Below, piece after piece: positions 1-57,594 of a stretch of DNA of 64,000 nucleotides. Where the stretch lies: assembly GCA_036961295.1 (NCBI GenBank), contig JBALVX010000001.1, positions 25,114 through 89,113 on the forward strand. The letters run 5' to 3'. Under the pieces are notes generated by a model. It was given only the letters and a program-made list of their open reading frames with translations, searched no databases and was not told the DNA's origin. The stretch's first letter is position 1. Each line of letters starts with the position of its first letter. Source of the stretch: Porticoccaceae bacterium (GTDB taxonomy: Bacteria > Pseudomonadota > Gammaproteobacteria > Pseudomonadales > Porticoccaceae). Position numbers and translations under genes: made by a program.

Positions 1-618
1 GGCATGGAGCGAGTAAAAATATACAGTGAAGGTATGCCGAATCGTAAAGGCACTGGGCTGTATACTCAGAAGGTAATGGAAAACTTTCCCTGTTTGCCTG
101 TGGAAGAAGAAGGGCGTTTAGAAGATGCGCGTCTTAGAGAAAATTTTATTCAACGTGTCTATGTATATTCACGCTGGAAAATGATGCGCAGCCAACGCTT
201 TACCATTACACATCTACAGGAGTTTCATGCCAAACATAAATATATCTTTATGAGTCACAATCAGACAGAATCCAGAATGTTAGGCGTCTTATTGGCGGAA
301 AACAGCGGGTCTGATCTCGGTAGTTTGGCAGATAAATACCTCGATAATATGATGCGTACATTAAAGTGTATTGCAAGTAGAAAAAATCATGTTAATACAC
401 TGCAACATATTCAGGGCTACCTTAAAAAATATTTGGATGGAGAAGATAAAGCTGAGTTAAATACAATTATCGAAGACTACAGGAAAGGTTTGTTGCCTCT
501 TATCGTCCCCGTCACTCTATTAAGACATCATTTTAGGAAACATCCGAATAACTATATAACCCAGTCTTATTATATGCCTCCCCATCCAGGGGAGCTGATG
601 TTGCTCAATAATATATGA
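1..618 (+). CDS. DUF1722/YbgA-like protein, C-terminal part (5' end outside window)
   Basis: Frame open from nt 1 to TGA 616-618. Translation (ENFIQRVYVYSRW...LQEFHAKHKYIFMSHNQ...LLRHHFRKH) fits the DUF1722 pattern that usually follows a DUF523 domain. AT-rich. Confidence 0.6.
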   Translation, partial: GMERVKIYSEGMPNRKGTGLYTQKVMENFPCLPVEEEGRLEDARLRENFIQRVYVYSRWKMMRSQRFTITHLQEFHAKHKYIFMSHNQTESRMLGVLLAENSGSDLGSLADKYLDNMMRTLKCIASRKNHVNTLQHIQGYLKKYLDGEDKAELNTIIEDYRKGLLPLIVPVTLLRHHFRKHPNNYITQSYYMPPHPGELMLLNNI

Positions 619-728
619 AACAAGTTTCCGTAACAGATAAGTTCTAAAAAAATTACGTTTACGAGCTTGTCGAACCCATCGGTAAAAACTTTGATAGTGA
701 GTTCAAGCCAGAGCTGACTCCCAAAGAA

Positions 729-1115
729 ATGTTGAGCTTAGGTGTATTTGGGGGTAAATATTTGAACGATTGCCAACAAGAGTTTTCTGCTAATTGGTTT
801 GTCGGTGCAAAGTTAAGCCCGCAAATAAAAGATATTAGTCTTAATTATTTCTCGGTAGATGCTTCCCAGCCGCTCAGTGAATGGCAGCGAAAAGGCTGGA
901 TTCATCTTCAAGACCCTAGAGGCTGGTTCCAGTGGTATTGCCGTTACTATATGGGTAGGCGCACATCAGATGATGTACGCCAGATAAAAAGGTGGAAAGC
1001 CTTTAGGCGGCATGCATCTGCGGTTAAAAAGAACTGTGAAAGATACGATTTAAGCTGTCGAAAGAAACAGCGACAGGCCTTGTTACATTGGGCATACGAT
1101 TCACGAAATCTATAA
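729..1115 (+). CDS. conserved hypothetical protein (PRGWFQWYCRYYMGRR motif)
   Basis: 128-aa ORF. The frame is open and protein-like from nt 648 (KNYVYELVEPIGKNFDSEFKPELTPKE) but has no ATG/GTG/TTG before 729, so the true start is uncertain. Confidence 0.45.
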   Translation: MLSLGVFGGKYLNDCQQEFSANWFVGAKLSPQIKDISLNYFSVDASQPLSEWQRKGWIHLQDPRGWFQWYCRYYMGRRTSDDVRQIKRWKAFRRHASAVKKNCERYDLSCRKKQRQALLHWAYDSRNL

Positions 1116-1441
1116 ATCGTCCTAAAACACTAGGATCAGCAGACCTCTTTCCCTGTTTCCTGGGCCCTTCATCCCAAAAATTGATACTATAATCCATTGA
1201 TTATTAAGGTTGCTCGCTCTGAACAAAAGCTCCGGGGAACAAGAGCCCCGGGAATAACGAGAATAGTCGGGAATAGATTATCGTGTACACCGCATATAAG
1301 CAGAGTGAGACCCTCTAGCTTATTGTTTTTATAATCGAATTACCTTGGCTACGGTCTGCTACGTCCAAAATGGAGTGGAAAGTGATATAAAGCCTGTGTC
1401 TATTGAATAAACTGCTAGGGCCAATTAGGAAAAGGATATTT

Positions 1442-1954
1442 ATGAAAAAATATATAGATAATCTGGCAAAAGTTTTATTGGGCTCTTCCTATAATGATCT
1501 GGAAAAGCCTGAACAAAAAGTAATCGACAGCATAGCCGAAGCAGAACCAATTGTTGAAAACGTCAATGAATTGTTCCATGAGCAACTAACATTTGGACAA
1601 CGGCTTGCCGATAAAATATCAACGTTTGGTGGTTCTTGGGCCTTTATAATTATTTTTTTAACTATCTTGGTGTCATGGATGGCGGTTAATTCTTTTTACT
1701 TAATTAGTCCCAAACAAGCCTTTGACCCGTATCCATATATATTTCTGAATCTTATGCTATCTACAATTGCTGCTCTCCAAGCGCCAGTTATAATGATGTC
1801 ACAAAACAGAAACACAGCCAAAGACCGTCTAGATATTACTCAAAATTATAAGGTAAGCTTAAAAACAGAATTGGAAATCATACGCCTTCATCAAAAAATA
1901 GATGAACTCACAAAAACACTTTCTCAAAACAAAGTAATTGATGAAGAGCCCTAA
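1442..1954 (+). CDS. DUF1003-like membrane protein
   Basis: ATG 1442 is preceded by AGGAAAAGGA. Two TM helices plus NLMLSTIAALQAPVIMMSQNR and a coiled C-terminus are typical of DUF1003. The longer ORF from TTG 1403 is less likely. Confidence 0.65.
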   Translation: MKKYIDNLAKVLLGSSYNDLEKPEQKVIDSIAEAEPIVENVNELFHEQLTFGQRLADKISTFGGSWAFIIIFLTILVSWMAVNSFYLISPKQAFDPYPYIFLNLMLSTIAALQAPVIMMSQNRNTAKDRLDITQNYKVSLKTELEIIRLHQKIDELTKTLSQNKVIDEEP

Positions 1955-2020
1955 CAATACGTTTAAATCGCTGCGCTCGGACAAGCAAAAAGCGGCTTGC
2001 CGTTTAACTCTGCGTTACGT
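1949..2020 (+). repeat. attC-like recombination site A (72 bp)
   Basis: R'' CCCTAAC (contains the TAA stop of the upstream ORF) - 5 nt - L'' GTTTAAA ... L' GTTTAAC - 5 nt - R' GTTACGT. L''/L' pair with one extra base in L''. The internal stem is cggacaagc/gcttgccg. Confidence 0.5.
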
Positions 2021-2040
2021 GTCATAAATCGGAGTATTAG

Positions 2041-2355
2041 ATGGCAGGAAAGTATCCGGATAGAATCAGAGCGCTACCACCTTATGATGGGCGTTTTGAC
2101 GCATACAAACTTGAAGCAAAAGAAGGCGATGTCCTTTTCGCATCATATCCTGCTGGCACATCCATTCCTCCCCATGTTCATGACACTGACAATCATGGTG
2201 TTATCACACGCGGTGAGTTGATATTGAGCATGAACGGCGAAGTAACTAAAGTAAGCGTGGGTGAGTGGTACCATGTTCCCGCAAATGTTGAGCACTCTGC
2301 CGAATTTGAAGTTGAAACAGATGAGGTTGAATTCTGGTTCCATGCAAACACTTAA
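2041..2355 (+). CDS. cupin domain protein
   Basis: 104 aa with GGAG RBS at 2031-2034. Cupin metal motifs PHVHDTDNHGV...EHSAEF. Stop TAA lies inside ACTTAAC (2350-2356), a perfect RYYYAAC box. Confidence 0.7.
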   Translation: MAGKYPDRIRALPPYDGRFDAYKLEAKEGDVLFASYPAGTSIPPHVHDTDNHGVITRGELILSMNGEVTKVSVGEWYHVPANVEHSAEFEVETDEVEFWFHANT

Positions 2356-2441
2356 CAAATCACTCCAATGGGGTTTATAGTTCCCACCATAATGAGGGTT
2401 GTAACAACCCTGAATTAAATTCACCTAATAGAGGATCAGTA

Positions 2442-4070
2442 ATGTTGGATCAGGACAGTAAAGCGGCGGTCTCCACTAGCACAGTCGACGCGGTGGTTAT
2501 CGGAGCCGGTGTGGCGGGGCTCTACCAGATTCATCAGTTGCGAGAGCAGGGCCTCAGCGTGAGAGGGTTTGATGCCGCGTCCGATGTGGGTGGCACCTGG
2601 AACTGGAATCGCTATCCGGGGGCTCGTTTTGATTCTGAATGCTATATCTACCAGTATTTGTTCTCCGAGGATCTTTACAAGGACTGGAGCTGGAGCGAGC
2701 GTTTTCCCGGACAACCGGAAATTGAACGCTGGATGCATTACGTGGCGGACCGCCTCGATCTGCGTCGCAGCATACAGTTCAACACCACAATCCAGAGCGC
2801 GCATTTTAATGAGGCCACCGAACGCTGGCTCGTCACCACCGACAGCGGCGAGGTCATCGACACAGGATTTTTAGTCACCTGCTGCGGCATGTTATCGGCA
2901 CCGCTGTCGTCCCTGTTTCCCGGGCAGGAAACCTTCAAGGGACAGATTTTTCACACCGCGCGCTGGCCAAAAGAACCGGTCGATTTAGCGGGCAAGCGAG
3001 TTGGCGTTATTGGTAACGGCGCGACAGGTATTCAGGTGATTCAGACCATCGCCGAGAAGGTCGAACATCTTTCCGTTTTTATCCGCTCGCCGCAATATGT
3101 ACTGCCCATGAAAAATATCAAGTATGGCGCGGCAGAAGTCGAAGGGTATAAATCGAGATTTAAGGAGCTTGCCGAGACCTTACCCCACACCTTTTCCGGC
3201 TTCGAATACGACGTCGAGCACACCTGGGCAGAACTGACACCCCAGCAGCGCCTCGACGTCCTTGAAGAGGGCTGGAGCAATGGCTCCCTGAAATTGTGGT
3301 TGGCCTCATTCGCCGAAGTATTTACCGACGAAGATGTCAGCGCGCAAATCTCCGAGTTTGTGCGGGAAAAGATGCGCGCGCGGCTCAAGGACCCCAAATT
3401 GTGTGAACTGTTGATACCCACTGACTTCGGTTTTGGCACGCACCGGGTTCCGCTGGAGACCAATTACCTGGAAGTCTACCATCGGCCCAATGTCGAAATC
3501 GTTAGCGTTAAAGATAATGCCATCGAAAGCGTTACGCCTGAAGGCATAAAAACGGCTGACGGCACCGTCCACCCACTCGACATCATCATCCTCGCCACTG
3601 GTTTTGACGCCGGCACTGGCGCGTTAACCCGCATTGATATCCGTGGTCGGGAAGGGCGCTCTCTGAAAGAAGACTGGAGTAAAGATATTCGCACCACCAT
3701 GGGTTTGCAGGTACACGGTTACCCGAATCTGTTCACCACCGGCGCACCCCTTGCGCCCTCAGCGGCGCTGTGCAATATGACAACCTGTCTGCAACAGCAA
3801 ACGGAATGGATCAGTGCCTGTATCAAATACCTACGCAACAAAAATTTGAAATGCATAGAGCCGACTCAGGAAGCCGAGGAGCAGTGGATCACCCATCACG
3901 AAGAACTGGCCAATGCCACCTTGGTGGCCAAAACGTCGTCCTGGTACATGGGTTCAAATGTCGAAGGTAAACCGCGGCGACTACTATCCTATATCGGCGG
4001 CGTGGGGGATTACCGCAACCGTTGTAATGAGGTCGCTGAAAAGGGTTATCCGGGTTTTGACGTTCATTGA
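2442..4070 (+). CDS. type I Baeyer-Villiger (flavin-dependent) monooxygenase
   Basis: 542 aa. Motifs GAGVAGLY FAD fold, GGTWNWNRYPGARFDSE, BVMO fingerprint FKGQIFHTARWP and a second Rossmann motif GNGATG. AGAGGA RBS. Confidence 0.85.
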   Translation: MLDQDSKAAVSTSTVDAVVIGAGVAGLYQIHQLREQGLSVRGFDAASDVGGTWNWNRYPGARFDSECYIYQYLFSEDLYKDWSWSERFPGQPEIERWMHYVADRLDLRRSIQFNTTIQSAHFNEATERWLVTTDSGEVIDTGFLVTCCGMLSAPLSSLFPGQETFKGQIFHTARWPKEPVDLAGKRVGVIGNGATGIQVIQTIAEKVEHLSVFIRSPQYVLPMKNIKYGAAEVEGYKSRFKELAETLPHTFSGFEYDVEHTWAELTPQQRLDVLEEGWSNGSLKLWLASFAEVFTDEDVSAQISEFVREKMRARLKDPKLCELLIPTDFGFGTHRVPLETNYLEVYHRPNVEIVSVKDNAIESVTPEGIKTADGTVHPLDIIILATGFDAGTGALTRIDIRGREGRSLKEDWSKDIRTTMGLQVHGYPNLFTTGAPLAPSAALCNMTTCLQQQTEWISACIKYLRNKNLKCIEPTQEAEEQWITHHEELANATLVAKTSSWYMGSNVEGKPRRLLSYIGGVGDYRNRCNEVAEKGYPGFDVH

Positions 4071-4105
4071 GTTGAAGGGGTGTTGTATGCTTTTTAGGAT
4101 ATTGT

Positions 4106-4273
4106 ATGAATGCCGCACAATCTCTTGACGACTTGCGTTCCCCTCCTGGAAACAGGCTCGAACCATTAAAAGGTGAGCTCAAGGGTTTTCACAGCATTCG
4201 TATTAATTCCCAGTGGCGCATTATTTTCCGCTGGGCCGAAGGTGGTGCCACCAATGTCCAGATCGTGGACTAA
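4106..4273 (+). pseudogene. higB: HigB-type (COG3549 killer) toxin remnant, N-terminally truncated with premature TAA
   Basis: 55-codon ORF NAAQSLDDLRSPPGNRLEPLKGELKGFHSIRINSQWRIIFRWAEGGATNVQIVD* matches only the C-terminal ~60% of about 92-aa HigB toxins. The frame opens 6 codons after the BVMO stop. It ends GAC TAA CAC TAA where the family ends VDYH. Confidence 0.7.
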
Positions 4274-4295
4274 CACTAAAATTTAGAGGTGTCAT

Positions 4296-4586
4296 ATGAT
4301 TCCCTGCAATAGAACTGCAACGCATCCAGGGGTCATTTTGCTCAAAGAGTTTCTTGAGCCACTGGATTTAACGCAAAAGGCTTTGGCGGCACACGTCGGT
4401 GTTCCTGTGCAGCGAGTTAATGAAATTGTTCGCGGTAAACGCGGCTTTACGCCGGAAACTGCATGGCTGCTTTCCGAGGCGCTGCGTACAACTCCAGAGT
4501 TTTGGCTCAATCTTCAATCCATACATGATTTGTCGGCCAATCGTCCCGATAATCACATTGAGCTATTGATCGCAGCGGGCATGTAG
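4296..4586 (+). CDS. higA: HigA-family antitoxin (XRE HTH)
   Basis: 96 aa. HPGVILLKEFLEPLDLTQKALAAHVGVPVQRVNEIVRGKRGFTPETAWLLSEAL is a typical HigA HTH. Starts 22 nt after the higB remnant. Confidence 0.85.
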   Translation: MIPCNRTATHPGVILLKEFLEPLDLTQKALAAHVGVPVQRVNEIVRGKRGFTPETAWLLSEALRTTPEFWLNLQSIHDLSANRPDNHIELLIAAGM

Positions 4587-4728
4587 CAAGCGTGACGCCC
4601 TTGCTTGTTAAGGGGTTAGATAGAATCTGCGCCTAACATCAATCGGGCTGCCACGCAGAAAACTTGGTAGTGCAGGTTTGGGCCTCACTTTAGCGCTTTA
4701 TAAAAACAGATAAAACTGTGGAATATCG

Positions 4729-4821
4729 ATCTTACAAGCGCATTAAGTTCGTTCCGACGCTGCGCATCTCCACTAGACCCAGCCTGCTTCGCAGTTTGCG
4801 TTGTTTATGCGGACGTTAAAA
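4729..4821 (+). repeat. attC-like recombination site B (93 bp, degenerate R'')
   Basis: ATCTTAC - 5 nt - CATTAAG ... GTTTATG - 5 nt - GTTAAAA, the same 7-5-7 spacing as sites A and C. Shares TTAAGTTCG and ACGTTAAAA with site C. Confidence 0.4.
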
Positions 4822-4835
4822 CTCAAAATCGAAAT

Positions 4836-5051
4836 ATGCCTAAATCAATAAAGCTTTTTCTTTTCTGTTACTTTGCCTCTTTAGTTATTGGTTTGGTGGG
4901 CATGTTTGTTTCTGGCGCTGTAAAGAATTTAGTGGGTGGAACTGCAATTTATGTAGCTGTCACTCTATTAATAATGTTTGCTTCATTGTTTTTTTATCAC
5001 AAAGCAACATTCGTGGGCAAAATGGGTATACGTGATATTCGCTGGCTCTGA
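4836..5051 (+). CDS. small hydrophobic protein (2 TM), possibly the 5' part of a frameshifted gene
   Basis: 71-aa ORF in very AT-rich DNA. It overlaps ORF 4978..5217 in another frame. Together they would give an approximately 125-aa 3-TM protein. Confidence 0.3.
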   Translation: MPKSIKLFLFCYFASLVIGLVGMFVSGAVKNLVGGTAIYVAVTLLIMFASLFFYHKATFVGKMGIRDIRWL

Positions 5052-5217
5052 TGCTTTAAATAAAATATGGGTTCTATATTTTTTCGGGCAAAAGTCCTTT
5101 GTTTTGTCAACTATCATAGCGCTGCAATTTGTGCTTTTAGTTTATTCTATATTTTTATTGTTTTATAAAGACAGTTATATTTGGTTCAAGAAAGCGTGTG
5201 ATCAATGGAAGGTGTAA
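4978..5217 (+). CDS. small hydrophobic protein / 3' part of a frameshifted gene
   Basis: 79-aa ORF. Its stop TAA is embedded in the GTGTAAC R'' box of attC-like site C. Confidence 0.3.
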   Translation: MLHCFFITKQHSWAKWVYVIFAGSDALNKIWVLYFFGQKSFVLSTIIALQFVLLVYSIFLLFYKDSYIWFKKACDQWKV

Positions 5218-5278
5218 CAAGTTGCTTAAGTTCGGTCGCTTTGCCGTAGTTTGTCTGGCCCTTAGCGAAACGTTAAAA
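5212..5278 (+). repeat. attC-like recombination site C (67 bp)
   Basis: R'' GTGTAAC (contains the ORF stop) - AAGTT - L'' GCTTAAG ... L' CCTTAGC - GAAAC - R' GTTAAAA. L'' has one extra A relative to L' (extrahelical base). The spacers do not pair (UCS-like). Confidence 0.5.
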
Positions 5279-5325
5279 GAACCCACTATCTTATTAAAGC
5301 AACCCACTTAACCCCAAACCAATCC

Positions 5326-5661
5326 CTACTTTTTCTTCTCAGTCGATCGCAACAGGTTAGACAGCTTCGGATTCGGCTTGCTGGCTTTCCGCAATAGCAA
5401 TGCGATATGACCAATGGTCTGCACCAGTTGGGTCTTGCAGGTTTTGTTAAGTTGGGCCAGTAGCTTGCGGCGGTCGTCGCGATCAGCCACGGCTATTTTG
5501 ACTTTGATCAATTCGTGATCGTCGAGCGCGCGTTCCAGCTCTGCTAGCACGGTAGGGGAAAGCCCCTTGTCGGCGATGGTAACCGTAGGCTTTAGGTCGT
5601 GGCCGATGCGGCGCAGGTACTTCTTTTGCTCGTTACTGAGTGCGGTGGATGTTACAGTCAT
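5326..5661 (-). CDS. yhbY: ribosome assembly RNA-binding protein YhbY (CRM domain)
   Basis: 111 aa. LSNEQKKYLRRIGHDLKPTVTIADKGLSPTVLAELERALDDHELIKVK. Divergent from rlmE, as in E. coli. Confidence 0.85.
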   Translation of the reverse strand: MTVTSTALSNEQKKYLRRIGHDLKPTVTIADKGLSPTVLAELERALDDHELIKVKIAVADRDDRRKLLAQLNKTCKTQLVQTIGHIALLLRKASKPNPKLSNLLRSTEKKK

Positions 5662-5745
5662 GGGTGGTTCGGGCCGTTGGTCGGGGCGCGGGATTTTAAC
5701 AGAAATTGGGCTGGCGAGGCCCCTTGATAGAAAAGATAGGCGAGT

Positions 5746-6375
5746 ATGGGTAAATCGAAAAGCGGAAGTAGTCGGCGCTGGTTACAGGAGCACGAGGCTG
5801 ATCACTATGTACAAAAGGCGCGGAAGGACGGCTATCGCTCCCGTGCCAGCTATAAATTGCTGGAGCTGGATACGAAGAATCGCCTGTTAAAACCGGGAAT
5901 GACGGTGGTTGATCTGGGTGCTGCGCCCGGGGGCTGGTGTCAGGTAGCGGCTGAAAAAATTGGCTCGAAGGGGCGAATCATTGCCTGCGATATCTTGCCG
6001 ATGGATAACCTGGCGGATGTGGAAATACTGTGCGGTGATTTTACCGAAGAAGCGGTACTCGCCGAGCTTGAAACTATGGTCGGCGGCGCGCCCATTGACC
6101 TTGTAATGTCGGATCTGGCACCCAATGTAAGTGGGATAAAGGAAGTGGATCAGCCTCGGTCCATGTATTTAGTGGAGCTGGCGCTGGAGTTTGCGCGCCA
6201 GGTTTTGAGACCGGGCGGGGTGTTTGTGACGAAGGTTTTTCAGGGTGAGGGTTCCGATGCTCTGCTCAAAGAAGTTCGTCAAGGTTTTCAAAAGGTTACC
6301 ATTCGTAAGCCGGAAGCGTCGCGACCGCGATCCAGAGAGGTTTACTGGGTTGCCACAGGTTTTCGGGCAAAATAG
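5746..6375 (+). CDS. rlmE: 23S rRNA (uridine2552-2'-O)-methyltransferase RlmE/FtsJ
   Basis: 209 aa. [30 protein letters not shown] and SAM motif [13 protein letters not shown]. Confidence 0.95.
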
Positions 6376-6484: not shown

Positions 6485-8440
6485 TTGAGTGAAGTAGCAA
6501 AGAATGTGATTCTCTGGCTGGTGATTGGCGCCGTGCTGTTTTCGGTGTTCCGGAATTTTCAGGAAGGGCCCGCACCGCAGAACATCACCTACACCAATTT
6601 TATTGATGAAGTGCAGAGTGGAAACGTTCGCAGTGTGCTAATTGACGAGTTGGTCATTCTGGGTGAGCGGGAAAATGGTGAGAAGTTTCGCTCCATCCGA
6701 CCCTATGCCAGCGATGACGGCATGATGAAGGACCTGCTCAATAACAACGTTAATATTTCCGGTAAAGAGCCGGACAAGGCCAGTTTTTGGCAGAGCCTGT
6801 TTTTGGCGATATTACCAATCCTATTGATTGTCGGCATTTTTGTGTTCTTTATGCGGCAAATGCAGGGCGGCGCGGGCGGTGGTCGAGGCGGCCCCATGTC
6901 CTTCGGTAAATCTAAAGCGCGCTTGCTCAGCGAAGATCAAATTAAAACTACTTTTGCCGATGTCGCCGGTGTCGATGAAGCCAAAGAAGAAGTTGGCGAG
7001 CTGGTGGAATTTCTGAGCGATCCTTCCAAGTTCCAAAGCCTGGGTGGTCGTATTCCCCGTGGCGTGTTGATGTCTGGCCCTCCGGGTACCGGTAAAACCT
7101 TGCTGGCCAAGGCGATTGCTGGCGAGGCGAAGGTGCCGTTCTTTTCTATCTCGGGTTCTGACTTTGTCGAAATGTTTGTCGGCGTGGGTGCGTCCCGCGT
7201 GCGCGATATGTTCGAGCAAGCTAAAAAACAAGCGCCCTGCATTATCTTTATTGATGAGATTGATGCGGTGGGCCGTACCCGCGGTGGCGGTATCGGCGGT
7301 GGTAATGACGAGCGCGAGCAAACGCTAAACCAATTGTTGGTTGAGATGGATGGCTTTGAGGGCAACGAAGGGGTGATTGTAATCGCCGCATCTAACCGCC
7401 CCGATGTGTTGGATAAAGCCTTGCTGCGCCCCGGACGTTTTGATCGCCAGGTCTATGTCGGCTTGCCGGACATTCGCGGTCGCGAACATATTCTTAAAGT
7501 TCACGCGCGCAAAGTGCCCCTGGACGAAGACGTTAAACTCAATGTGATTGCTCGCGGTACGCCGGGTTTCTCTGGTGCCGATCTTGCCAACTTGATCAAC
7601 GAGGCCGCGCTGTTTGCGGCGCGGTCCGATAAGCGTCTGGTCACCATGGAAGAGTTTGAGAAAGCCCGAGACAAAATCATGATGGGTGCCGAGCGCCGCT
7701 CCATGGTGATGTCCGAAGAAGAAAAAGCCAATACCGCCTATCACGAAGCGGGCCATGCCATTATTGGTCGTTTAGTGCCGGGCCACGATCCGGTGCATAA
7801 GGTCACTATTATTCCCCGTGGTCGCGCTCTGGGTGTTACCCAGTTCCTGCCCGAAGAAGATCAATACAGCATCAACAAACGACAACTGGAAGGCCAGATT
7901 TGCAGTTTGTTCGGGGGTCGAATCGCCGAGGAGTTAATACACGGTGCCGACGGCGTTACGACTGGTGCCTCTAACGATATTGAGCGCGCTAGTCAGTTGG
8001 CGCGGAGCATGGTAACCAAGTGGGGTTTGACCGAAAAACTCGGGCCCATCCTCTACGGTGAAGAGCAAACTATGGACCCTTCCGAGAGAGGCAGAAATTT
8101 CTCGGGAGAAACCTCCAAGCAAATCGATCACGAAGTACGCGGTATTATTGACCGCTGCTATCAGCGGGCGAATAAATTGCTCGAAGACAATATCGATATT
8201 TTGCACGCGATGAAAGCAGCGCTGATGGAATACGAAACCATCGATGCCGATCAAGTCAACGATTTGATGGAGCGGCGCACGGTGCGTCCGCCGCAAGGCT
8301 GGGACGACGATTTAGATCACCGCTCGGGTGGCAGCAAGCCCAAGGAAGCCGATGTTAGTGGCAATGTAGATGCGGACGTAAATACGGATGGAGATACGGA
8401 TAAGGAAAGCCCTATTGGCGGACCGGTCGAGGACAGCTAG
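6485..8440 (+). CDS. ftsH: ATP-dependent zinc metalloprotease FtsH
   Basis: 651 aa. Walker [12 protein letters not shown], zinc site HEAGHA. TTG start with GAGGA 8 nt upstream. Acidic C-terminal tail. Confidence 0.97.
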
Positions 8441-56424: not shown

Positions 56425-57594
56425 ATGTCTAGTGCTATCGCTGGAAACTCCGGCCCCTTAAGCTTCGTCGCCCGAGTTACCACCTTGCCGCATCTAACCT
56501 TCGCCATCTTACCGGTAGTCGGCTACCTCCTCGGCGGCGGGATATATCATTGGATAACCGTATTCGTGTTGTTGGCACTTATGTTTATCGACCCGATCAT
56601 TGGGACCGACGATACTAATCACGACGAAGCTGATGAGGGAGCGCTGCAAGAAAAATTATTCTATCGAATGATGCTCTGGGTAACTTTGCCAGCCTCTGTT
56701 GCGGTTACTATTTTTGGCCATTGGCTGTTGACCCAAACTAGCCTTACAACCTCGGAAACAATTGGCTTTCTGCTCTCGCTAACCTTAGCAACGGGGTTCC
56801 TGGCCACCACGGCCCACGAGCTTTGCCATCACACACAGCCCGTCGATCGCTTGATTGGCGACCTGGTGTTTACACCCATTTTTATGTGTGATTTCCATAT
56901 CTATCACAACTTTATGCATCATATTCATGCCGCTACGCCCATTGATCCGGGCACCGCGCGCTACGGCGAGAAAATTTACCCTTTCTTGATCAATAGCATT
57001 GTCAGAAAAACCCGGATGGCCTGGCAGATAGAAAAGAAGCGCATGGCAGATAACGGTAAACCAACCTGGCACCCCAGTAACCTGATGATTCGGTTTATCG
57101 TACTGCAGGCCGCGTGGTTGGGATTGTTAGTCGCTTTGTTCGGTCTTTGGTCGATCCCGATCTGCTTTGTGCAGTATTTATTCCCCAGGTTATTGTTAGC
57201 CGTAGGTGATTATCTCGAGCACTACGGCCTGGGGCGCAAACAGTTGCCGGATGGTAGCTACGAAAAAATTCGACCCAATCACGCCTGGGACGACAGTACT
57301 CTGGTCAGTAGCATGCTGTTCTGCCAGATAGACCGTCACTCCGATCATCACACTAATGTTGGTCGGCCTTACCAAATTCTACGAGTGATGGACGAAGCGC
57401 CACGCTTGCCCCAGGGCTACCTGACGATGATCCCCATCGCGTTTATCCCCTCGCTTTGGCGAAAGCAAATGCACCCCGTCGTCGAAGCCTATTACGACAA
57501 AGGTGAGGTAATACCCTATGCCATGCCCGATGCCTTACCGGAAAAGTACGCAGCAATGGTGCCTGAAGGGTGGGGGCAAACCCTACCGGACTGA
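56425..57594 (+). CDS. AlkB/XylM-family integral-membrane non-heme di-iron monooxygenase
   Basis: 389 aa. His boxes HELCHH, HNFMHHIH and DRHSDHH, plus EHYGL. Confidence 0.85.
   Translation: MSSAIAGNSGPLSFVARVTTLPHLTFAILPVVGYLLGGGIYHWITVFVLLALMFIDPIIGTDDTNHDEADEGALQEKLFYRMMLWVTLPASVAVTIFGHWLLTQTSLTTSETIGFLLSLTLATGFLATTAHELCHHTQPVDRLIGDLVFTPIFMCDFHIYHNFMHHIHAATPIDPGTARYGEKIYPFLINSIVRKTRMAWQIEKKRMADNGKPTWHPSNLMIRFIVLQAAWLGLLVALFGLWSIPICFVQYLFPRLLLAVGDYLEHYGLGRKQLPDGSYEKIRPNHAWDDSTLVSSMLFCQIDRHSDHHTNVGRPYQILRVMDEAPRLPQGYLTMIPIAFIPSLWRKQMHPVVEAYYDKGEVIPYAMPDALPEKYAAMVPEGWGQTLPD

Follow-up and report, generated by a model that had tools for sequence, protein, structure and literature searches.

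The subject of this analysis is the left end of a 64-kb stretch of DNA from a Porticoccaceae bacterium (assembly GCA_036961295.1, contig JBALVX010000001.1, positions 25,114 to 89,113 of the forward strand; 64,000 nucleotides, hereafter the window), where 5.3 kb of co-oriented genes run up to the core gene yhbY. The first-pass annotation, made from the sequence alone, had proposed that this block is the distal end of an integron cassette array, recognizable by attC-like sites. Three of the properties on which it drew are borne out here. The GC content of the block swings between 0.34 and 0.57 (host, 0.52), promoter-like sites are scarce (5 against 9.9 expected from shuffles), and the block stops 47 to 48 bp short of yhbY (5326..5661, minus strand, Pfam CRS1_YhbY), which forms its right border, with homology between strains resuming at position 5280. 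Gene content and a GC mosaic of this kind are typical of cassettes. An Rfam search of positions 1 to 6000 at a permissive threshold gave no match.

At its left edge the block holds the last 204 codons of a gene for a TudS (2-thiouracil desulfurase, DUF523)/DUF1722 protein (1..618, plus strand; Pfam DUF1722, E = 1e-39). The homologue of a conserved 166-amino-acid (166-aa) gene with no assigned function follows (615..1115, plus strand; placed by comparing the translation from a related genome, L001, with the window sequence), and then a noncoding spacer of 299 bp (1116..1414, no strand), whose last base, G1414, would be the first crossover point (..AATAAACTG|YTA). To the right lie about five units, all on the plus strand. 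The first (1415..2014; 600 bp, GC content about 0.36) comprises a 5' remnant CTAGGG, an open reading frame (ORF; 1442-1954) for a membrane protein of Pfam family DUF1003, and an attC-like site, A, up to the crossover base G2014. The second (2015..4071) carries a cupin gene (2041-2355; Pfam Cupin_2) and a gene for a Baeyer-Villiger-type flavin monooxygenase (BVMO; 2442-4070; Pfam FMO-like), which always occur together and are common to all strains; it starts G|TTAYGT. The third (4072..4614) contains the higBA module that the annotation had named. HigA (4296-4586) is indeed full length, with an HTH_3 domain, and the HigB ORF (4106-4273, 55 aa) is truncated, matching Pfam HigB-like_toxin at positions 36-86 of 91 only, so that about 35 N-terminal residues are gone; an attC remnant lies at about 4581-4620 (TGTAGC..G|TTAGAT). 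The fourth unit (4615..4815) has no ORF, begins TTAGAT, carries site B, and is found only in the window and in the related contig L175. The last (4816..5272; GC content about 0.34) ends in site C and has two short ORFs (4836-5051 and 4978-5217) whose products would be hydrophobic and whose coding status is doubtful; within its 457 bp, four indel columns, which shift the frame, separate it from L175.

An attC site is bounded on its 5' side by R'' (RYYYAAC) and on its 3' side by R' (GTTRRRY), two boxes complementary to each other, between which the L'' and L' boxes are set off by unpaired spacers of 5 to 6 nucleotides (nt). An extrahelical base lies on the L'' side, the bottom strand folds as an imperfect hairpin, and the crossover takes place between the G and the TT of R'. 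Three elements of such a layout, with the 7-5-7 architecture that had been described for them, lie on the plus strand at the positions originally given: site A at 1949..2020 (R'' CCCTAAC, spacer AATAC, L'' GTT(T)AAAT, L' GTTTAAC, spacer TCTGC, R' GTTACGT), site B at 4729..4821 (R'' ATCTTAC, spacer AAGCG, L'' CAT(T)AAGT, L' GTTTATG, spacer CGGAC, R' GTTAAAA), and site C at 5212..5278 (R'' GTGTAAC, spacer AAGTT, L'' GCT(T)AAG, L' CTTAGC, spacer GAAAC, R' GTTAAAA). In all three, L'' and L' pair through 3 bp, one bulged T on the 5' side, and a further 3 to 4 bp, and the 5-nt spacers are unpaired, as had been claimed; the extra base, first noted for A and C, is also seen in B. Pairing of the outer boxes through TAAC/GTTA holds for A and C, and fails in B, which has one core mismatch (TTAC). 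None of the three matches the degenerate RYYYAAC/GTTRRRY consensus at all seven positions. Site B is the weakest; its 5' half is 76% identical to that of C, which is the last site before the core genome. In site A the stop codon, TAA, lies within R''. Of the four stop codons that the annotation had placed in ..AACAA boxes, those at 1952, 2352, and 5215 do sit in ..TAACAA; the one at 616 (TGAAACAA) is merely the ATGA overlap of two conserved genes and was rejected as an attC. After the cupin gene an R''-like remnant, ACTTAAC, is visible at 2348-2354 (a 6/7 match to the complement ACRTAAC), and no intact attC follows either the cupin or the BVMO gene in the window.

The architecture alone is no proof, since the loose 7-5-7 pattern (wobble pairs allowed, any xAC/GTT) arises often by chance; the window has 93 matches. 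The pair of motifs TAACAA...CGTTA was likewise rejected as a discriminator, as six further chance pairs occur in the window. A strict form of the geometry, requiring TAAC...GTTA, 5-nt spacers, and at least six of seven Watson-Crick pairs in the bulged L box, is far rarer: other loci give eight matches over 4.3 Mb of strand sequence, or about 0.01 expected per 5.3 kb on one strand. The 5.3-kb block holds two matches, site A and site C, each on the coding strand and at the stop codon of an ORF; site B fails on its TTAC and on two G-T pairs. The annotation had itself named dispersal as a generic repeat as evidence that would speak against its proposal; no further copies were seen, and within the window the motif TTAAGTTCGKTC is limited to B and C.

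We regard the comparison between strains, a check that the annotation had proposed, as the decisive evidence that these units are probably cassettes. Five strain contigs were compared: L001 (GCA_036961225.1), found through its exact YhbY protein; L002, a Porticoccaceae metagenome-assembled genome found by a genome scan; and L175, L176, and L177, reached through a homologue of the DUF1003 protein. Exact matches to the cupin, BVMO, and DUF1003 proteins of the window were also sought, and none was found. L082, from a related species with 85% YhbY identity, is the sole close relative added by a metagenome scan with YhbY, and the remaining yhbY loci (at most 65% identity) served as background only. 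To the right of the TudS/DUF1722-166aa pair, the window and L175 share the order DUF1003, cupin, BVMO, higBA, the unit with site B, and the last cassette with site C. The order in L001 is DUF1439, 119aa, 110aa, RDD, cupin, BVMO, higBA, 149aa, 172aa; in L002 it is cupin, BVMO, 172aa; and in L176 and L177 it is DUF1003, cupin, BVMO. In L082 the ECH gene adjoins yhbY with no cassette block, an empty site.

Across the five contigs, these whole-cassette differences cut exactly at G|TT. The 600-bp DUF1003 cassette of the window sits between ..AAACTG| and ..TCTGCG|TTACGTGTCAT; in L002 it is precisely absent, the junction reading directly ..AATAAATTG|TTATGTGTCAC, and in L001 four other cassettes lie between the same two points. 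The same G1414 hence precedes three different cassettes, namely cupin in L002, DUF1003 in the window, and DUF1439 in L001. Toward yhbY, a 172-aa (Rieske-like) cassette that starts G|TTAAATGG occupies the place of the last cassette of the window and has different neighbors in L001 and L002; in L002 the BVMO gene is followed by a different sequence ending GGGGGCG|TTAAAT. Between the window and L001, the blocks at window positions 1-1414, 2012-4602, and 5280 onward are 95-98% identical, and the segments between them are replaced. The higBA module is absent from L002 and cut through in L176 and L177. Bases 1-1414 are constant in all strains, with 92-95% identity in the spacer, and are absent from L082. 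We read them as a constant module and not as cassettes, so that by this comparison the array itself starts inside the window, at 1414|1415.

A second line of evidence comes from the ends of the units. As an integron crossover splits R', the leading six bases of a cassette are the final six of its own R' and are complementary to its own R''. This closure was assessed at three variable R'' positions in each of ten cassettes from the window and L001. The 5' end of a cassette matches its own R'' at 21 of 30 positions, vs 8 of 27 for the linear downstream neighbor and 25% by chance (P = 2.8e-7). It is seen, for instance, in the DUF1003 cassette (CCCTAAC against G+CTAGGG), the 110-aa cassette (ACCTAAC against G+TTAGGT), and, at six of seven positions, the site B cassette (ATCTTAC against G+TTAGAT, for which the complement would be ATCTAAC).

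The DUF1003 cassette is also shared with a second array. Positions 1416-2017 of the window are 90% identical to positions 3646-4248 of L178, a contig of 37% GC from JGI metagenome 3300035162; the L178 copy starts G|TTAGGG and ends ACG|TTA, and the flanks are unrelated on both sides. As L178 has TTAGGG, the CTAGGG of the window can be explained by a T-to-C change, and the GC content of the cassette fits a low-GC donor like L178 and not the present host. Around it, positions 2030-5230 of L178 form an integrase-less array between DEAD-box helicase and TonB-receptor genes, with units encoding 52aa, DUF2726, DUF1003, 118aa, and MAPEG. Four similar repeats of about 100 nt that resemble attC are visible there by eye. 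When folded, the one at 3550-3650 takes a textbook attC shape (z = -4.2), and those at 4630-4728 (z = -3.2) and 2447-2546 (z = +0.55) show no canonical fold. Further DUF1003 homologues of 77-78% identity occur in L182 (1-5800) and L185 (8131-8631), beside the same AstE/RimK/RimB-like cluster, within a run of about 11 small co-oriented genes in L182 and as a single gene in L185; they were not used as further cassette evidence. Plasmid-borne DUF1003 homologues all fall below 60% identity and are uninformative.

Independent support for site A comes from a home-made covariance model, R1, built from class 1 integron sites only (62 positions, 16 pairs). Class 1 integrons were fetched with an IntI1 query that matches the annotated intI1 of thousands of plasmids at 100% identity, and nine attC sites were used for training: aadB, aadA1, aadA2, aac(6')-29a, blaVIM-2, arr-3, aac(6')-Ib, dfrA27, and dfrA17. 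With filters off, site A is the best match in the 64-kb window (22.8 bits, E = 0.0038). The second-best match (57048-57132, minus strand, GACTAAC...CGTTATC; 11.4 bits, E = 2.6) is at chance level and far from the array; the remaining 58 kb of the window yield no significant match, and yhbY loci of other genera, 1.48 Mb in all, yield none at all. The best matches in L001 are intergenic and follow the 110-aa and 119-aa genes (E = 0.013 and 0.19). In L178, R1 gives four intergenic matches on the same strand (E = 0.0013, 0.0014, 0.48, and 2.8), three of them repeats of the four recognized by eye and the fourth the copy of site A; in L182 and L185 it finds no significant attC. A second model, from class 1 and L001 sites together, was dropped since MAFFT misaligned the 5' ends.

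No integrase gene lies beside the block. A six-frame search following the approach of PMC4889954, with IntI1 tblastn in place of the intI_Cterm profile, found nothing at E <= 1e-3 in the window or in 161 loci and none at E <= 1 in L178 to L181; its matches in L001, L002, and L175 to L177 do not rise above chance. The one match that recurs (window 996-1151, E = 1.5-21) lies on the cassette strand inside the 166-aa gene and was set aside as chance, a single observation repeated in homologous strains. L175, which is 96.7% identical to the window and collinear with it from base 1, shows what lies farther left: dnaJ-dapB-carA-carB-greA-CMD-ECH-TudS/DUF1722-166aa, with no recombinase in its gene table between dnaJ and secG. 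The left flanks of L001 and L176 are the same, and in L082 yhbY lies directly beside ECH-CMD-greA-carB.

Taken together, four independent findings, namely the polymorphisms at G|TT, the closure of the cassettes on their own R'', the R1 rank of site A, and the shared DUF1003 cassette, support the view that the left 5.3 kb is an integrase-less integron cassette array (CALIN), complete and small, between the convergent ECH/CMD/greA genes and yhbY; on this sequence evidence, we put the probability of that reading at about 85%. As defined in the literature, a CALIN has two or more attC sites that lie on the same strand with less than 4 kb between them, and neither intI nor a pseudogene of it within some 10 kb (PMC4889954). 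Sites A, B, and C are all on the plus strand, with 2.7 kb between A and B and 0.4 kb between B and C, and neither the strain flanks nor tblastn reveal an intI or pseudogene within about 10 kb. R1 by itself gives one significant and one borderline site; for all three, the assignment draws on geometry, closure, and polymorphism. The adjacent intI of a complete integron is lacking. Nor does the block, with its five or so units, its heterogeneous sites, and its lack of intI, qualify as a sedentary chromosomal integron. The array would consist of the DUF1003 gene with site A, the cupin and BVMO genes, higB-higA, the ORF-less unit with site B, and the last, AT-rich unit with site C. The suggestion in the first-pass annotation that the block may be a CALIN is thus supported; its expectation of a larger integron, with the block as the distal end, is not.

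It can be hypothesized that each unit entered as a circular cassette and that the integron tyrosine recombinase IntI recombined its folded bottom-strand attC with a resident site, crossing over between the G and the TT of R'. Such a crossover would explain why every unit starts TTRRRY, complementary to its own R''. As no IntI is encoded beside the array, it would have acted in trans: it could have been encoded elsewhere in the genome, brought in temporarily by a mobile integron, or present in an ancestor from which intI was later lost. The anatomy of the block, its exact cassette polymorphisms, the cassette in common with another array, and the lack of a local intI are seen directly; the action of IntI is inferred from the unmistakable traces it would have left, and its source and whether the sites are active at present are likewise matters of inference. 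The first insertion would have been at G1414, the end of a conserved spacer that is not an attC and that behaves like an attI or a secondary "attG" site. The end of the spacer (1116-1414) may thus be an attI-like site, an "attG" of the GWT type, or the last remnant of a decayed attC; the spacer shows no attC structure, no fold signal relative to shuffles (z = -0.26 for 1100-1425 folded as single-stranded DNA [ssDNA]), no Rfam match, and no match to R1. Since then, the array appears to have been partly eroded and also reshaped by ordinary deletions, part of which is directly visible in the strains. The attC sites of the cupin and BVMO unit would have decayed or been deleted, and that of higA would survive only as a stump.

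Several observations weigh against this reading. The window and L001 diverge at 4602, in the middle of a short element next to higA and not at G|TT, and the BVMO/higB junction at about 4078, with which the truncation of HigB coincides, has no attC; as both junctions lie off G|TT, they need ordinary deletions. L176 and L177 have a 1.1-kb deletion that joins CCATTAAAAG inside higB to ACGTTAAAAG (TTAAAAG) at the R' of site C (window 4173-5265; joints at L176 7886-7899 and L177 4655-4668), with loss of higA, site B, and the last cassette. This deletion is ambiguous and could reflect either slippage at TTAAAAG or imprecise integrase-mediated excision or recombination with a secondary site. In the plus strand of 1116-1414 there is no sigma-70-like promoter and no recognizable attI; attI sites are not known to be conserved between integron classes. 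No integrase was identified for this genome in the window or the strain contigs. For two of the ten boundaries used to assess closure, the choice was made in part by eye; leaving them out gives 15 of 24, still far above chance. R1 places site C only fourth in the window and below threshold (9.9 bits, E = 5.8 in 64 kb, about 0.5 when scaled to the 5.4-kb block), and does not detect site B.

The folding of the sites points the same way. The variable hairpin that had been described between the boxes is real as a layout, and as a structure it is weak and folds like shuffled sequence. Folded as ssDNA without constraints, A, B, and C do not exceed shuffles in stability (z = +0.15 to +0.76; -0.65 to -1.4 in a further run). 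The canonical attC fold has energies of -4.5 (A), -4.7 (B), and -0.2 (C) kcal/mol, compared with -17 for aadA2 and -33 for arr-3 of class 1, and it is not the minimum-energy fold of any of the three, being 4.5-7 kcal/mol worse than the alternatives. Per nucleotide, the central stems of A to C reach -0.09 to -0.13 kcal/mol vs -0.19 to -0.32 in class 1. The sites of the 110-aa and RDD cassettes in L001 fold well (z = -8.1 and -3.2). The copy of site A in L178 has an equally weak hairpin though its cassette has evidently moved, which suggests that the weakness is intrinsic to site A and no bar to past movement.

Among the alternatives, the one that survives best concerns origin. The block could be what is left of a complete chromosomal integron that once stood here, its intI and attI deleted or replaced, and not the product of insertion in trans. 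The fixed entry point, with different cassettes in different strains, is what would be expected at an attI, the sequence ..AATAAAC-T-GTTATGT resembles an attI simple site loosely and by eye only, and loss of intI is one published route to CALINs (PMC4889954). We nevertheless consider this origin doubtful, if clearly conceivable, as there is no intI pseudogene (the recurring match at 996-1151 being at chance level), the genes on the left side of the entry point share one orientation and have no connection with recombination, 95% of published CALINs have no intI remnants nearby (PMC4889954), and insertion by IntI in trans at GWT sites of a genome has been shown experimentally (bioRxiv 10.1101/2022.09.11.507474).

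It could also be speculated that the conserved 299-bp spacer (1116-1414), which ends ..AATAAACTG|TTA, is a dedicated orphan attI-like landing pad beside the TudS/DUF1722-166aa pair, still served in trans by an integrase that is encoded elsewhere or comes in on mobile elements. If true, the array would be actively turning over and not decaying; we consider this unlikely. Far less probable still is that a complete integron, its intI, attI, and Pc just left of the window, has its distal part here, as the first-pass annotation had expected. The window does begin inside the block, with its own left flank out of view, and the junction at 1414 varies between strains as it would beside an attI, but the collinear L175 flank and those of L001 and L176 carry no integrase, IntI1 has no significant tblastn match in these contigs, and ECH-CMD-greA-carB is the conserved neighbor of yhbY in L082. 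Equally improbable is the view that the elements are generic repeats, of REP or terminator type, in a hypervariable islet shaped by homologous and illegitimate recombination with no integron link: the abundance of the loose pattern, folds no better than shuffles, junctions off G|TT, and the lack of an integrase would fit it, and against it stand the absence of further copies and of significant R1 matches elsewhere in the window or in related loci, the lack of terminator-like T-runs in A, B, and C, and two findings that only integron recombination explains, the closure result and the precision with which the DUF1003 cassette ends at G|TT in each of two arrays that are otherwise unrelated.

The constant module to the left of the array deserves separate mention. 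The TudS/DUF1722 gene is collinear and present in all five strain contigs, and its full-length homologues in L001, L175, L176, and L177 encode 318-333 aa with PF04463 and PF08349. The 166-aa gene is intact in the same four contigs; in the window it has a nonsense codon at 645-647, TAA vs CAA in L001 (Gln11 to stop), and no relative of the protein was found in Pfam, NCBIfam, or PDB. Copies of a 21-nt direct repeat, GTCCTAAAACACCAG(A/C)ATCAG, identical at 20 of 21 positions, bracket the two genes (window 1119-1139; L175 8098-8118 and 9684-9704), one about 130 nt upstream of the TudS start and the other directly after the 166-aa stop codon, and could be a trace of the insertion of this two-gene module or a common regulatory site. 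A tandem repeat with a unit of about 28 nt, GGTTTGGTGTCTGTGGTTTGGTGCCTGT, lies just upstream of the module in L002 (reverse complement, positions 1-120, at the contig end); L175 (about 8035-8070) and L001 have one or two degenerate units, so its copy number varies.

The proposed CALIN resembles published ones in having at least two attC sites on the same strand less than 4 kb apart, no intI within about 10 kb, a small size, and cassettes mostly of unknown function without resistance genes; 83% of published CALINs have fewer than six sites (PMC4889954). It differs in that membership is argued here from comparative evidence and a small home-made model instead of IntegronFinder, in the unusually weak hairpins of its sites, and in its two units without attC. 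With sedentary chromosomal integrons, such as the Vibrio superintegron and its VCR repeats, it shares a chromosomal location, promoterless cassettes encoding toxin-antitoxin modules and proteins of unknown function, stop codons in TAACAA R'' boxes, and an R' that reads CGTTA. Unlike them, it has no intI and no recognizable attI or Pc, about five units in place of tens to hundreds, and heterogeneous attC sites, of which only B and C are alike; the L178 array, by comparison, shows by eye homogeneous attC-like repeats of about 100 nt, of the sedentary-integron type. A sedentary integron in the published definition has more than 19 attC sites, which are homogeneous, together with a linked intI, and is conserved within its species.

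Compared with class 1 attC sites (aadA1/2, aadB, arr-3, aacA4, blaVIM-2, and dfrA17), the window sites have the same order of R'', 5 nt, L'' (3 bp, bulge, 4 bp), L', 5 or 6 nt, and R', and they share the L''-side bulge of arr-3, aadA2, aacIb, and VIM-2. The L boxes of arr-3, CAT(C)AAAC/GTTTATG, nearly equal those of site B, CAT(T)AAG/GTTTATG, and a model made from class 1 sites recovers site A. The bulge is C or G in class 1 and T in all window sites, the central stems are weaker, and there is no sequence homology. The block also has features of cassettes inserted at genomic attG sites and of SALINs (Loot et al., bioRxiv 10.1101/2022.09.11.507474): the cassettes lie outside an integron platform, and the first junction, G|TT (GWT), looks like neither attC nor attI. 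Imprecise excision that deletes neighboring DNA has been described for genome-inserted cassettes (bioRxiv 10.1101/2022.09.11.507474) and resembles the deletion from inside higB to the R' of site C in L176 and L177. Here, by contrast, the cassettes are stacked, a single entry point receives different cassettes in different strains, and the case is known from sequence only.

In conclusion, CALINs are already known as a kind, and this one changes nothing in what is known of integrons. It would add a well-documented case in the Porticoccaceae, a marine family rich in uncultured members, and is unusual in that five strain variants, together with an empty site, allow its cassette events to be followed at single-base resolution; one cassette is also traceable to an unrelated low-GC array. 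The locus may thus illustrate how a CALIN gains, swaps, and erodes cassettes, including the probable loss of attC sites and the truncation of a toxin gene. For annotation of these genomes, the reading would account for the GC mosaic and for the genes of unknown function beside yhbY.

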